From: a virus
UHGV virus genome: UHGV-0786930
Strand: one strand, 5' to 3'
DNA: 5,386 bases
Numbering within the stretch: the stretch's first letter is position 1; the number at the start of each line of letters is the position of its first letter. The notes under the pieces were generated by a model. The model was not told the origin of the DNA, did not search any database, and was given only the letters and a program-made list of their open reading frames with translations. Shown one piece after another: positions 1,551 to 4,815 of this stretch. Position numbers and translations under genes: made by a program.

Positions 1551-3356
1551 ATGAAACTTAGTAAATTTAACTTGTCGCATAGGCACCATACTACTATGGA
1601 GATGGGTAAATTGGTGCCTTTCTATGTTCAGGATTGTTTGCCTGGTGATATATTTCGTATTTCTAATCAGGCTATTTTTCGCGCCCAGCCTATGGTTGCG
1701 CCTGTTATTTCCCAGATAAACTGGGTTACGCAGTATTATTTTGTGCCCTACCGAATACTTTGGGATAACTGGACTGAATTTATTACCGGTGGTGATGACG
1801 GTCTCTCAAATCCTGCTTACCCTACGGTTACCGCACCAGAAGGAGGATGGCAAGCTAACTCGCTTGCTGACTATTTTGGTTTTCCTATAAAGCAAGCTGG
1901 CATTGAAGTATCAGCACTTCCATTCCGTGCTATGGCTAAAATTTGGAATGACCATTATAAAATTGATGATATTGAGGTTGATGTTGAATTCTCTACCACT
2001 GACGGCCCTGATTCTTCTACGCCGACCGAACTTATGCCTGTTCACTGGAAGCGTGATTACTTCACAAAGGCTAAACCATTTACTCAGCGTGGTGCACAAA
2101 TCAGCGTCCCTGTCATCCCTGCCGTTAAAGTAGGTTCAGCATACCCTGTCTATTCGCCTTTGGTCGTTAAGGATGGTGATATTACCCAAACAGAACCCAC
2201 AGGCTCTCAGCTTGTAGGCACTGCTACTTGTGATTATCAAGGTAAATTAACCTCATTCGTCATTGACCCTGCTGTTAAGCCTACTTTGAGCAGTGGCTAT
2301 ATAAAATTTGTTTTCAATATGACCTCTGCTGGCATTGATAGTTCTGCTGCTGGTTATTCTGTTTGTCCTAACAATCAAACTGTCAATACTATTTTTTATG
2401 TCCCTGTTAAGATAATTTGGGGTAACCCAAATTCTTATAGTGACTCTCCTGTATTTCAAGGCAGCTGCACAACAACTGTTAAAACTGCTAAATGTTTTGC
2501 GCCTGTTTCTGGCGCTAGGAAACCTAGTTTTTATTATGTTGCAGAATTTACTGATGTTGTATTTGCTTTTACACAAGTATCAGCAAATGAAAAAGTCGAT
2601 TTGGGTTCATCAGGTGCTATTAATATGCGCGATTTGCGTGTTGCGAGTGCTTATCAACGCTTTAATGAGAGGAGTTTAAAATATGGAGCAGAATATGAGG
2701 ATTATTGTCGTATGGAATTCGGCGTGCGTCCGCGTGATAGCCGACTCAACAAAAGTGAGTATCTCGGCGGTAATAAAGCGCCACTTCAAATTAGCGAAGT
2801 CATACAAACAGCTCCTGGCGCACAAGGACAAACCCCACTTGGAAATATGGCTGGTATGGGAATTGGACAAGCCAGACAGCGTCGTATTAAGTATTTCTGC
2901 CCTGAACACGGTATTATTATTGGTTTCGCGTCTATTCGACCAGAAACTATCTATACGCAAGGCATCGATAGAGCGTGGCTTAAACGAAATAGATTTGACT
3001 ATTTTACTTACGAGTTTGCTAACATCGGCGCACAGGAGATTATGCAGCAGGAGCTTTATGCCACCAAAGACAATAAAAATTCTGTATTTGGATATGCTCT
3101 TAATGGCAATTACAACGAGTATCGACATCAAGAGAGCCGATTATCAGGAAATTTTAGAACCGATTTGTCGTTCTGGCACTTGGGACGTCAATTTGCTGAG
3201 GCGCCTGTCCTCAATCAGTCATTTATGAAAATGAATCCGCGCAAGGATATCTTTGCTATTACCGACGATAGCTTGCCTGCTTTCTTGGTTATGCTGCAAA
3301 ACAATATCATTGCTTATCGCCCTATTCCTAAGCGGGCTAAAAACATTTTAAAGTAA
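1551..3356 (+). CDS. VP1: Major capsid protein (Microviridae VP1/F-like, gokushovirus-sized), 601 aa.
   Basis: N-terminus 'FNLSHRHHTTMEMGKLVPFYVQDCLPGDIF' matches the conserved start of Microviridae major capsid proteins (…H..T…G.L.P……PGD…). 601 aa is in the gokushovirus VP1 size range. Strong SD and its own promoter. Largest ORF, with antisense ORFs only as shadows. Confidence 0.92.
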   Translation: MKLSKFNLSHRHHTTMEMGKLVPFYVQDCLPGDIFRISNQAIFRAQPMVAPVISQINWVTQYYFVPYRILWDNWTEFITGGDDGLSNPAYPTVTAPEGGWQANSLADYFGFPIKQAGIEVSALPFRAMAKIWNDHYKIDDIEVDVEFSTTDGPDSSTPTELMPVHWKRDYFTKAKPFTQRGAQISVPVIPAVKVGSAYPVYSPLVVKDGDITQTEPTGSQLVGTATCDYQGKLTSFVIDPAVKPTLSSGYIKFVFNMTSAGIDSSAAGYSVCPNNQTVNTIFYVPVKIIWGNPNSYSDSPVFQGSCTTTVKTAKCFAPVSGARKPSFYYVAEFTDVVFAFTQVSANEKVDLGSSGAINMRDLRVASAYQRFNERSLKYGAEYEDYCRMEFGVRPRDSRLNKSEYLGGNKAPLQISEVIQTAPGAQGQTPLGNMAGMGIGQARQRRIKYFCPEHGIIIGFASIRPETIYTQGIDRAWLKRNRFDYFTYEFANIGAQEIMQQELYATKDNKNSVFGYALNGNYNEYRHQESRLSGNFRTDLSFWHLGRQFAEAPVLNQSFMKMNPRKDIFAITDDSLPAFLVMLQNNIIAYRPIPKRAKNILK

Positions 3357-3366
3357 GGAGATTCAT

Positions 3367-3831
3367 ATGGCTTCTAGAATTACTAATAAACAAGCAGAAG
3401 GCTTGTTTGAAATTCAGGCTACTGTTGGGCGCACTGGTTGTTATGCGCCTCGTCCTATTGTCACTGAAGAATTAGACCCTGAGTCTATTGTCGATATAGT
3501 GCATGCACCTGATACTCTGTCGTCTGCTCTTGATAGAATCAATCGAGGCTCTATGACTTACGAGGAATTTCAAACTCTCCACGGAGGTGGTGAATACGAC
3601 TATGACGATATTGATGATATAGATGATGATTTTGATGAGGAGGAATACTATGTCGATAAAGATAGAGACACCGTTGACCGCAGAGGCAAATACTACGACA
3701 AAGACAAAGAATCTCGTATTTTGGCGGCCGAGTCTAAGAACGCAGGTAAAAGCGATACAAGCTCACACAAAAAGGATAAACCGCGAAAAGTGGATAGCGA
3801 ATCAGATTCGATTGATAAAGGAACTGAATAA
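3367..3831 (+). CDS. Acidic 154-aa protein with a D/E/Y low-complexity tract. Possible internal scaffolding protein (VP3-like). Function uncertain.
   Basis: AAGGAG SD 6 nt upstream of ATG 3367, immediately after the MCP stop. The tract 'GGGEYDYDDIDDIDDDFDEEEYY' and a Lys/Asp-rich tail. The position right after the capsid gene and ~150-aa size fit a scaffold protein. Confidence 0.7.
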   Translation: MASRITNKQAEGLFEIQATVGRTGCYAPRPIVTEELDPESIVDIVHAPDTLSSALDRINRGSMTYEEFQTLHGGGEYDYDDIDDIDDDFDEEEYYVDKDRDTVDRRGKYYDKDKESRILAAESKNAGKSDTSSHKKDKPRKVDSESDSIDKGTE

Positions 3832-3838
3832 TGCTTGA
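3650..3838 (+). CDS. Candidate overlapping (+1 frame) gene inside the acidic-protein gene: 62-aa basic protein MSIKIETPLTAEANTTTKTKNLVFWRPSLRTQVKAIQAHTKRINREKWIANQIRLIKELNNA.
   Basis: Perfect SD GAGGAGG (3637-3643) with a 6-nt spacer to ATG 3650. The ORF is open to 3838. Overlapping genes are characteristic of Microviridae. Caveat: the SD-like string is produced by Glu codons (GAG GAG GAA) of the host frame. Confidence 0.3.
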   Translation: MSIKIETPLTAEANTTTKTKNLVFWRPSLRTQVKAIQAHTKRINREKWIANQIRLIKELNNA

Positions 3839-3868
3839 ATTCATAATTGTGTTTGCTTTTTTATCGAT

Positions 3869-3896
3869 TTGCGCTTTATTTGCGTATCACTATTAT
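3869..3896 (+). promoter_or_regulatory. Weak candidate promoter for the small-peptide gene: TTGCGC(3869-3874) - 16 nt - TATTAT(3891-3896).
   Basis: AT-rich intergenic stretch with -35/-10-like hexamers placed to start transcription just upstream of the SD at 3907-3915. Confidence 0.25.
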
Positions 3897-3921
3897 AAAT
3901 TTTGGAAGGAGGTGATTATCA

Positions 3922-4008
3922 ATGAATAAAGAGAGAATTGGTTTGTGGATTGCAGCACTTACTGGCGCTATAAATGCTATTTGGGAACTTGTTAAAGGTC
4001 TTATATGA
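3922..4008 (+). CDS. 28-aa hydrophobic/amphipathic membrane peptide MNKERIGLWIAALTGAINAIWELVKGLI. Candidate lysis peptide or type-I-toxin-like peptide.
   Basis: Very strong SD AAGGAGGTGA (3906-3915) a few nt before ATG 3922. Charged N-terminus 'MNKER' followed by a ~23-residue hydrophobic helix. Small residues spaced i, i+4 (G7-A11-G15-A19, glycine-zipper-like) and two flanking Trp. An intrinsic terminator follows immediately. Confidence 0.5.
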   Translation: MNKERIGLWIAALTGAINAIWELVKGLI

Positions 4009-4039
4009 GCGCGCGGCTTTTTGCTTAAAAAAACGCTAG

Positions 4040-4067
4040 CCCGTCCAGCAATGGACGGGTTTTTTTT
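4040..4067 (+). terminator. Rho-independent terminator: 8-bp GC-rich stem CCCGTCCA/TGGACGGG, GCAA tetraloop, T8 tract.
   Basis: cccgtcca-gcaa-tggacggg-tttttttt, perfectly paired stem followed directly by eight T. 32 nt downstream of the peptide stop. Confidence 0.8.
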
Positions 4068-4123
4068 GCCCAAAAATTGCCCGAAGGGCGCGGCTTTCAT
4101 TTATGAAAACACTCTACCGATTG

Positions 4124-4161
4124 CGAAAAAAAGTCGCGGGGGCGCACCGTTAAGCCCCCGC
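4124..4161 (-). terminator. Possible minus-strand intrinsic terminator: hairpin A followed on the - strand by GAC + T7-8.
   Basis: The + strand reads 'gcgaaaaaaagtc-GCGGGGGC…GCCCCCGC', so the - strand has the stem-loop followed by gacTTTTTTT. The 3-nt gap between stem and U-tract weakens it. Confidence 0.25.
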
Positions 4162-4240
4162 ACCTACGCGCTCACCATGCGCGAAGCACGCTGTGGTGTG
4201 AGCGCGCATGGGGGTTATAAGGGGGCTTGCCCCCTTATAT
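4124..4240. other. GC-rich non-coding cluster of three consecutive stem-loops. Hairpin A 4136-4161: 8 bp GCGGGGGC/GCCCCCGC, 10-nt loop. Hairpin B 4167-4211: two alternative 9-bp pairings around a 19-22-nt loop containing CTG. Hairpin C 4216-4239: 10-bp stem, CTTG tetraloop.
   Basis: Inverted repeats read directly. Composition (G5/C5 runs, GCGCGC) contrasts sharply with the AT-rich remainder. Located between a + terminator and a + promoter. No SD-led ORF. Confidence 0.55.
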
Positions 4241-4241
4241 A

Positions 4242-4270
4242 TTGACAAATTACCGAAAAAATTGTAAAAT
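4242..4270 (+). promoter_or_regulatory. Strong sigma70 promoter: TTGACA(4242-4247) - 17 nt - TAAAAT(4265-4270), TG immediately upstream of the -10.
   Basis: Consensus -35, optimal 17-bp spacer and a 5/6 -10, in an AT-rich block immediately after GC-rich hairpin C. Predicted TSS ~4277-4278. Confidence 0.7.
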
Positions 4271-4277
4271 TTTTTCG

Positions 4278-4324
4278 GCACAGACTACAGACTTGATGAC
4301 TCTGTGCTAGATGACACCATCTAG
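4278..4324 (+). promoter_or_regulatory. Structured 5' leader / operator: hairpin 1 (GCACAGA 4278-4284 / TCTGTGC 4301-4307, 16-nt loop) abutting a perfect 18-bp palindrome CTAGATG-ACAC-CATCTAG (4307-4324) whose 3' arm overlaps the SD AGGAG (4323-4327).
   Basis: Inverted repeats read directly. GATGAC direct repeat at 4295-4300 and 4310-4315. The palindrome lies between the predicted TSS and the RBS of the basic-protein gene. Confidence 0.5.
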
Positions 4325-4332
4325 GAGAAATA

Positions 4333-4815
4333 ATGGTTTGGAAATTTTTAACTCGTTCAAAAAGGCGAAATAAGGGCCGTAGGCGTGCCTTAAAGCCACA
4401 AAGTCGCCAAAATATCGTTTCAAAAACGATTACAGATGTAAGGAAAATATCAAAGCCGCAGACGCTTTTATTGCCTGGTCTTATAAAACATAAATATAAC
4501 CAAATTACTGGGTTGCACCCCAAAAAGCGATTAGCTTTTGAAATCGCAAAGCGTAGAAATAGGCGTTTGAACTCGATTAGAGATAATTTGAAGAATTCTT
4601 TGCACTCATTAACCAAAAATATGTTACAATCTCGTTTAACGGATGAGCAGAGGCGTGAGCGTTATGCGCAGAGGATTTGCGTTGAAAGAAGGTTACGTCG
4701 TGATGAGATTATGCGGAAAACGCATGGAAAAGGTCTTAAAATTAAAAATGCCATCTGGACGCCTGAGTCTAGGCTTGTCCGTTGTGAAAAAGATAAGGTT
4801 AAGAGGAGAAGGTAA
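4333..4815 (+). CDS. Highly basic 160-aa hypothetical protein (Arg/Lys-rich, no hydrophobic core). Probable nucleic-acid-binding / internal virion protein with no recognisable family.
   Basis: SD AGGAG 5 nt before ATG 4333. Its own strong promoter. The stop overlaps the VP2 start (TAATG at 4813-4817). Composition 'RSKRRNKGRRR…RRERYAQRICVERRLRRDE…KDKVKRRR'. Confidence 0.75.
   Translation: MVWKFLTRSKRRNKGRRRALKPQSRQNIVSKTITDVRKISKPQTLLLPGLIKHKYNQITGLHPKKRLAFEIAKRRNRRLNSIRDNLKNSLHSLTKNMLQSRLTDEQRRERYAQRICVERRLRRDEIMRKTHGKGLKIKNAIWTPESRLVRCEKDKVKRRR

Follow-up and report, generated by a model that had tools for sequence, protein, structure and literature searches.

The mechanism of host lysis by microviruses has been worked out only for the E protein of phiX174. 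Some microvirus lineages carry M15 peptidases or a lysin, and the role of the small peptides encoded by microviruses is unverified. Microviruses are abundant in gut and environmental viromes. The present work deals with pep28, a gene of 28 codons in the microvirus genome UHGV-0786930, the 5,386 nucleotides of which are referred to below as the window. It is a concrete and comparatively validated candidate for an exit (or entry) factor, universal and nearly invariant in a clade without a wall-degrading enzyme.

phiX174 E is a single-gene lysis protein of 91 amino acids and an inhibitor of MraY, with an N-terminal transmembrane and a C-terminal basic domain, and is overprinted in the scaffold gene D. 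The product of pep28 resembles it in being a small microvirus protein whose active part would be one membrane helix, in a phage devoid of a muralytic enzyme. It differs from E in its length of 28 amino acids, in the lack of a second domain, in being encoded by a separate open reading frame (ORF) located 3' of the gene in the scaffold position, and in having the strongest ribosome-binding site (RBS) of its genome. A second reference is LysM, a 37-residue single-helix protein that lyses by wedging into MurJ. LysM/SglM (levivirus M) and pep28 are both very short single helices without a signal sequence, and LysM binds its host membrane protein in a residue-specific manner; it offers the best functional analogy for a peptide with every residue conserved. 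Nevertheless, LysM belongs to a single-stranded RNA phage and shows no sequence similarity to pep28, which is 9 residues shorter.

Other small membrane-active proteins share some of these properties. TisB (29 amino acids) is similar in length and, on crude scales, in hydrophobicity and hydrophobic moment, and it also has charged residues inside the helix. In contrast to TisB and the type I toxins, pep28 has no antisense RNA, is neither chromosomal nor plasmid-borne, is predicted to be strongly translated and is a phage core gene. Holins possess between one and four transmembrane domains, usually measure 60-150 amino acids and work with an endolysin. The small-xxx-small motif of pep28 is also found in holins and pinholins (as in the glycine-zipper helix of S21 68), and its high expression would be compatible with mass-action triggering, but pep28 is one 28-residue helix and the 5.4-kb genome has no endolysin. 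phiX174 K (56 amino acids) and Ebor Gp1 (45 amino acids) are likewise small predicted microvirus membrane proteins with no structural role shown; they are longer, have no sequence relation to pep28 and are not known to be universally conserved. Finally, phenol-soluble modulins (PSMs) and delta-lysin are also short helices, amphipathic and cytolytic, although their amphipathicity is higher (hydrophobic moment 0.60-0.66 vs 0.41 for pep28) and their hydrophobicity much lower.

The pep28 gene and its conservation

The gene and its flanking signals are the following:
3906-3915, + strand: Shine-Dalgarno sequence of pep28, AAGGAGGTGA, 6 nucleotides 5' of the ATG.
3922-4008, + strand: pep28, 28 codons, product MNKERIGLWIAALTGAINAIWELVKGLI, with the ATG at 3922 and the TGA stop at 4006-4008.
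4038-4069, + strand: intrinsic terminator, the best terminator-like site in the window, consisting of a hairpin (4038-4061; 10 pairs, of which 6 are G-C, with a G-T pair at the base; 4-nucleotide loop) and then T8.

The Shine-Dalgarno sequence, the ATG, the stop codon and the hairpin with its T-run are all present where the initial annotation had placed them. The RBS, which had been described as one of the best in the window, is in fact the strongest among its 110 ATGs, with a duplex energy of -23.3 kcal/mol with the 16S 3' end, compared with -17.5 kcal/mol for the next-best ATG and -8.8 kcal/mol for the capsid gene. No significant RNA structure masks this site; when 3895-4075 is folded as RNA, nothing but the terminator forms a stable element (region z = -1.25).

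A set of relatives was obtained by a capsid search of a large protein collection, with identities from 82% down to ~48%, after which the contigs were fetched; seven further loci came from a back-translated pattern scan of metagenomes, for a total of 16 distinct related genomes. The pep28 gene is present in all 16, out to a capsid identity of 50-60%, and in every relative it is preceded by an AAAGGAG(G)-type Shine-Dalgarno sequence. The (G)AAAGGAGGTGAT form is conserved in the 11 close versions only, while the distant relatives keep the shorter AAAGGAG(G) core. Close relatives (capsid 69-82%) encode MNKERIGLWIAALTGA[IV]NAIWEL[VIF]KGLI, and the distant ones (capsid 50-60%) encode, for instance, MNQSTKERISLWITAICGAIGTLWEMIKNLI and MPESTKAKISLWITAITGAIGTIWECLKNLL. 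Across the 11 distinct close DNA versions, 24 of the 28 codons vary and 2 change the residue (I17V and V24I/F). The pairwise proportions of synonymous (pS) and non-synonymous (pN) differences are 0.5-0.9 and 0-0.06, respectively, with a ratio of non-synonymous to synonymous rates (dN/dS) below ~0.05. Both the ORF and purifying selection were thus found in related genomes, a check that the initial annotation had proposed. The codon pattern indicates that pep28 is a genuine protein-coding gene with its own translation start, subject to very strong purifying selection.

The probability that the frame has no function of its own, being a chance ORF, a leader peptide that controls the terminator or a by-product of DNA- or RNA-element conservation, is negligible. 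The ORF is very short and adjoins a highly structured non-coding region, as such an explanation would have it, but its synonymous sites are saturated while the amino acid sequence is fixed, the other five reading frames over it contain stops or vary freely, and the RNA fold is unremarkable except for the terminator. Conservation imposed by an overlapping frame or by DNA structure is ruled out by the codon pattern and the unconserved other frames. A leader peptide or attenuation is ruled out as well, as a gene of about 62 amino acids separates pep28 from the terminator in many relatives.

In the same relatives, pep28 is 93-100% identical, compared with 69-82% for the capsid protein, 66-77% for Rep and 72-83% for the scaffold-position protein, and by this measure no other product of the genome is as well conserved. 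Gene callers often overlook it: it is among the called genes of some relatives but not of others, and in L027 the call over it is a 58-amino-acid ORF in a different frame. Similar core peptides may hence hide in other small phages.

The initial annotation had also presented pep28 as a stand-alone gene with its own terminator. It had overlooked a 32-amino-acid ORF (3831-3929) that overlaps the start of pep28 by 8 nucleotides, and no promoter-like site lies nearer upstream than a weak 9/12 match at 3473-3500. pep28 is the last cistron of a genome-long polycistronic transcript and does not stand alone. The terminator itself is present, with a stem that is invariant and a loop that is variable in the relatives, but it does not belong to pep28, because relatives carry a 62-64-amino-acid gene between pep28 and the same terminator. 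Judging from these arrangements, it ends a genome-long transcription unit and is common to whichever gene is last.

With regard to homologues, neither pep28 nor its distant versions match any Pfam or PHROG family at E <= 0.1, the phiX E family included. No NCBIfam model scored above threshold; the sole listing was PSM alpha-1/2 (E = 0.061), and membership of the phenol-soluble modulin alpha family was rejected, as its 13.1 bits lie below the cut-off of 30. The lone PDB match, a designed repeat protein retrieved through summed weak repeats, is spurious. A concatenated protein query of three pep28 variants had no match in an index that seems to be without such short products. tblastn with two pep28 variants against 50,697 GenBank phages gave chance matches only, with E of at least 2, and neither back-translated patterns nor a broader degenerate DNA pattern detected a homologue in IMG/VR, which holds only 33-35% capsid relatives, all without pep28. 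Among 1.84 billion cluster representatives, the pep28 cluster itself was the only one found, an ankyrin-repeat match being an artefact. The gene is also absent from the next-closest microviruses (capsid 33-44%), although their genes follow the same general order. In 185,579 bacterial and archaeal reference genomes there is neither a pep28 gene nor a capsid relative, and hence no prophage and no clue to the host. By these searches, pep28 constitutes a new orphan family among small phage-encoded membrane peptides.

These results also bear on the type-I-toxin-like module that the initial annotation had suggested. An addiction or abortive module of the type I toxin-antitoxin kind would account for the size and the amphipathic hydrophobic helix, which resemble those of TisB and other 27-35-amino-acid toxins, and with 28 amino acids and a Kyte-Doolittle 19-residue mean of 1.61 the product fits the profile of a small hydrophobic toxin (<60 amino acids). 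However, there is no minus-strand promoter-like site for an antisense RNA between 3656 and 4933 and no Rfam match, all genes lie on one strand, as expected of a single-stranded DNA phage, and pep28 has no near promoter of its own, being the last cistron of the late operon. Moreover, its RBS is very strong and unmasked, whereas type I toxins are translationally repressed, it is a universal core gene of its clade, in a lytic-type genome, and no homologue occurs in the bacterial and archaeal genomes searched. Such a module is extremely improbable.

The predicted product and its possible role

AlphaFold2, run on a single-sequence monomer, models residues 2-29 of the 30-residue query as one uninterrupted helix, with a mean predicted local distance difference test (pLDDT) score of 89.6. 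The helix postulated in the initial annotation is in this respect upheld, but its hydrophobicity is only borderline for a transmembrane segment, with the Kyte-Doolittle mean given above, a crude position-independent Hessa sum of +3.4 kcal/mol and a hydrophobic moment of 0.41. On crude scales, the peptide is close to TisB, melittin and M13 pIX and differs both from the phiX E helix, which is strongly hydrophobic, and from the PSMs and delta-lysin, which are strongly amphipathic. W9 and W21 are 12 residues, or ~18 A, apart, too close for the two tryptophans to lie at the opposite interfaces of a perpendicular span, as had been proposed.

The residues K3, L8, W9, I10, A12, G15, A16, W21, E22 and K25 are invariant family-wide, and the small-residue pattern is kept as [GS]7-xxx-[AT]11-A12-xx-G15-A16-xx-[AGT]19. 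Of the glycine zipper first described (G7, A11, G15 and A19), G15 is therefore invariant, while the other three positions are not strictly G or A, with G/S, A/T and A/G/T, respectively. On a helical wheel, G7, A11, T14, G15, N18, E22, K25 and G26 lie on one side, and A12, G15, A16 and A19 form a small-xxx-small patch. The N-terminus carries a net charge of +1 in all variants and the C-terminal end one of -1, which weakly favours an N-in orientation. The model and the alignment support one helix in which a face of small residues is conserved, as would suit a membrane peptide.

We tentatively favour a role of pep28 as a phage lysis effector acting on the host membrane, a reading that is possible though short of probable. 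Without a signal sequence, the peptide would insert into the cytoplasmic membrane of the host in an N-in/C-out orientation and would pack tightly through its small-residue face. Its partner might be the peptide itself, in an oligomeric holin- or TisB-like pore lined by T14, N18, E22 and K25, or a conserved host membrane protein, as in the wedging of LysM into MurJ. pep28 evolves more slowly than any other phage protein, which argues for a partner under tighter constraint than the phage proteins (self, lipid or a host protein) and favours one outside the phage proteome. The peptide would build up late and then permeabilise or poison the envelope, allowing the progeny to escape. Failure of the wall would have to come from the host side, because no phage muralytic enzyme is present, and might speculatively result from blocked wall synthesis or from host autolysins freed by depolarisation.

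Besides the evidence for a real and constrained gene and for a single helix, and the precedent of LysM, two observations argue for this role. First, pep28 is always kept, while several relatives have lost the adjoining 62-amino-acid gene and retain different remnants of it. Second, the genome presents the situation typical of single-gene lysis, that of a phage without a muralytic enzyme: no peptidoglycan hydrolase, phiX E family member, holin family member or endolysin was detected with Pfam, PHROG and NCBIfam in any ORF tested. The statement that this virus lacks a phiX E-type lysis gene holds: no lysis gene can be recognised in the genome, and in the literature, too, the phiX174 protein is the only case in which lysis is understood.

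Other points weigh against a lysis effector. No homology links pep28 to lysis, the family being an orphan without a Pfam, PHROG, NCBIfam or PDB relative. Lysis proteins are usually fast-evolving, and pep28 is the slowest-evolving gene of the genome; phiX E is weakly expressed, and the strongest RBS would be no less expected of a stoichiometric or structural product than of a toxin. The hydrophobicity is borderline for autonomous membrane insertion, and the neighbouring 32-amino-acid ORF encodes a more canonical transmembrane peptide. Furthermore, to lyse a walled cell a pure pore-former depends on muralytic activity, which the genome does not encode. The reading is kept tentative because slow evolution and strong translation are atypical of lysis proteins and a pore alone would be insufficient. 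A narrower version, in which pep28 is the shortest known single-gene lysis 'protein antibiotic' (28 amino acids vs 37 for LysM) and has a specific conserved host target, is unlikely. If this is true, no smaller lysis effector would be known, and its target would reveal a membrane protein at which the host is vulnerable. The peptide is short enough for chemical synthesis.

The physical properties on which the lysis reading is based would be identical in a membrane peptide with a non-lytic role, such as modulation of burst size in the manner of phiX174 K, superinfection exclusion, or anchoring of replication or assembly to the membrane, possibly together with the 62-amino-acid protein. Where the gene for the latter is present, pep28 always adjoins it, in either order and with an ATGA-type overlap. 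Other microviruses also have small membrane proteins of unknown role, such as Ebor Gp1, which is not detected in virions, and high conservation with high expression fits a typical toxin poorly. On the other hand, accessory modulators are usually dispensable or patchy, as are the 62-amino-acid gene and the 32-amino-acid ORF, whereas pep28 is never lost in the 16 genomes, and a non-lytic role would leave a sporadic ORF as the only lysis candidate of the phage. We consider this explanation somewhat doubtful.

The position of pep28, which immediately follows the capsid and scaffold genes within one transcript, raises the question of a virion or assembly component, either a small helix bound to the capsid or scaffold or a peptide that is packaged and released at infection to aid the pilot protein in crossing the host membrane. 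pep28 shares the two strongest RBSs of the genome with a J-like basic 34-amino-acid ORF (353-457), a would-be stoichiometric virion protein, it is universal within the clade like the structural genes, and its hydrophobic helix, rich in Gly and Ala, is similar to the segment at the N-terminus of the pilot protein, LLFAGGSALLGGIGSWF. Nonetheless, it evolves far more slowly than the capsid, pilot and scaffold proteins to which it would have to be fitted, and the next-closest microviruses, with the same gene order, assemble without it. No microvirus virion is known to contain such a peptide. Mass spectrometry of the Ebor virion showed the capsid, pilot and basic proteins only. A virion role is thus improbable, and very much more so is the variant in which pep28 is packaged stoichiometrically in the T=1 capsid and, once set free at infection, acts as a membrane-penetration peptide that assists the pilot protein in opening the host membrane. 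In this variant it would correspond, in a phage, to the lytic peptides known from non-enveloped animal viruses (nodavirus gamma, picornavirus VP4).

The small-gene cassette and the genome

Two features adjoin pep28 in the window:
3831-3929, + strand: hydrophobic 32-amino-acid ORF, MLEFIIVFAFLSICALFAYHYYKFWKEVIINE, whose ATG overlaps the upstream stop (TAATG) and whose end overlaps the start of pep28 by 8 nucleotides.
4008/4009, no strand: deletion scar, where ATATGA is joined directly to GCGCGCGGC, by comparison with L001, L005, L007, L008 and L013, in which the gene is intact.

The 32-amino-acid ORF has a clear transmembrane-type hydrophobicity (Kyte-Doolittle 19-residue mean 2.34, Hessa sum -0.7). 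Counterparts of the same type, with an MIEL start, occur in three relatives only: in L004 (MIELLFGLTAGLVAFFGGYHCAKGGDDDE) 5' of pep28, in the 4114-4203 region; in L020 (MIELIGGIVIGIISVLGIHRATKKETEVT) 3' of pep28, at 3675-3764; and in L003 as a truncated remnant. The ORF occurs sporadically and evolves fast, and its status as a gene is uncertain; it could be an accessory partner of pep28.

The 62-64-amino-acid gene found beside pep28 in ten relatives encodes a soluble protein (MILWDLDYxTWRKLW..PYEMTGD..FTE..IRSCK.DEELF.KF.WE), and a search with it retrieved three clusters only, all within the same clade. It mostly lies 3' of pep28, with an ATATGA overlap and ahead of the same terminator (for instance, at 2903-3091 in L001 and 3073-3264 in L005), and it lies 5' of pep28 in L018 (3163-3357), L019 and L027. 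In the relatives, its ATG, at the equivalent of window positions 4005-4007, is located inside ATATGA, and its end lies just 5' of GCGCGCGGC. The gene is cleanly deleted in the window and in L004, while L010, L014 and L015 keep differing partial remnants, which suggests that it was lost more than once. By this distribution, pep28 is the indispensable member of an otherwise variable small-gene cassette.

The other main features of the window are:
510-1526, + strand: rolling-circle Rep (E = 3e-18).
1551-3356, + strand: Phage_F major capsid protein (Pfam, E = 9e-93).
3367-3831, + strand: acidic 154-amino-acid gene in the position of the internal scaffolding protein, 3' of the Phage_F capsid gene as in annotated relatives.
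4242-4270, + strand: best promoter-like site, TTGACA-17-TAAAAT with TG ahead, an 11/12 match, conserved in relatives.
4333-4815, + strand: ORF160, first gene of the transcript.
4815 to 331 (spanning the window junction), + strand: pilot protein of 300 amino acids, an uninterrupted frame matching pilot-protein PHROGs.

The 5,386 bases are a complete microvirus genome, circular and linearised at a permuted point, with the Phage_F capsid, rolling-circle Rep, pilot protein and ~5 kb circle that are the hallmarks of the Microviridae. Plausible genes are found on the + strand only, and the product of the scaffold-position gene has no family match in Pfam or PHROG. The promoter-like site at 4242-4270 is the likely start of the transcript, which would end at 4069 after one turn of the genome. 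The order from ~4270 round the circle is ORF160, pilot, small basic ORF, Rep, capsid, acidic scaffold-position gene, 32-amino-acid ORF, pep28 and terminator. No near nucleotide match to the genome exists among GenBank phages, and the capsid protein is at most 44% identical to that of any of them; from these comparisons, the genome represents a previously undescribed microvirus clade that is missing from GenBank phages.

Hairpins of the non-coding region and additional frames

As single-stranded DNA, the non-coding region 4009-4332 folds into a chain of hairpins, with a minimum free energy of -78.7 kcal/mol, compared with -46.5 +/- 3.8 kcal/mol for shuffled sequences (z = -8.6). In an alignment of eight genomes, 12 predicted pairs have two-sided changes that preserve the pairing, and the stem of the hairpin at 4136-4160 differs wholly in sequence between relatives with the pairing kept. 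The region is a candidate complementary-strand origin or priming region. Within it, the loop and 3' arm of a perfect hairpin at 4252-4277 (CCGAAAAAATT-GTAA-AATTTTTTCGG) hold the -10 element TAAAAT of the promoter-like site, and relatives show a compensatory change from A-T to C-G in it. The minus-strand origins of filamentous phages contain a promoter-mimicking hairpin in the single-stranded form, and the candidate hairpin at 4252-4277 could be of this kind.

The adjacent hairpin at 4278-4307 (GCACAGA...TCTGTGC) has a loop, CTTGATG, that is invariant in every relative, L011 included. This loop resembles CAACTTG^ATATT, the core of the nick site in the phiX174 origin, and the hairpin is a candidate for the plus-strand origin cut by Rep. 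Next to it, the conserved hairpin CTAGATG-ACAC-CATCTAG (4308-4325), with a compensatory change from G-C to A-T in L001 and L015, abuts the Shine-Dalgarno sequence of ORF160 and may exert translational control over this gene.

In two relatives, L003 (3836-4190) and L008 (4375-4720), the stretch that separates the small-gene cassette from the conserved promoter is an entirely different non-coding sequence, with another set of hairpins and without a T-run terminator of the window type. The pattern points to modular exchange of intergenic regions within the clade.

Additional frames were observed within the capsid and scaffold-position genes, both on the + strand. A 181-amino-acid ORF (2683-3228), overprinted on the capsid gene in the +1 frame, remains uninterrupted in every close relative (177-189 amino acids) and is closed in L011, L018, L019 and L020; it may be a by-product of nucleotide conservation, because it sits in the most conserved part of the capsid gene. 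A basic 71-amino-acid ORF (3623-3838; ...KNLVFWRPSLRTQVKAIQAHTKRINREKWIANQIRLIKELNNA), which uses an alternative frame over the 3' half of the gene in the scaffold position, is likewise uninterrupted in every close relative, with a recognisably similar product in L011, and may be an overprinted gene. Finally, two overlapping small ORFs lie on the + strand between the pilot and Rep genes, at 334-513 and 353-457. The latter encodes 34 amino acids (MAFGFYHTRKRGKRRGIKKLIRKLKRRLRRRRRR) and is extremely basic, like the J/VP8 DNA-binding proteins; its RBS is the second strongest in the genome, at -17.5 kcal/mol, and the gene callers applied to the relatives picked the other frame (52-64 amino acids) over it.

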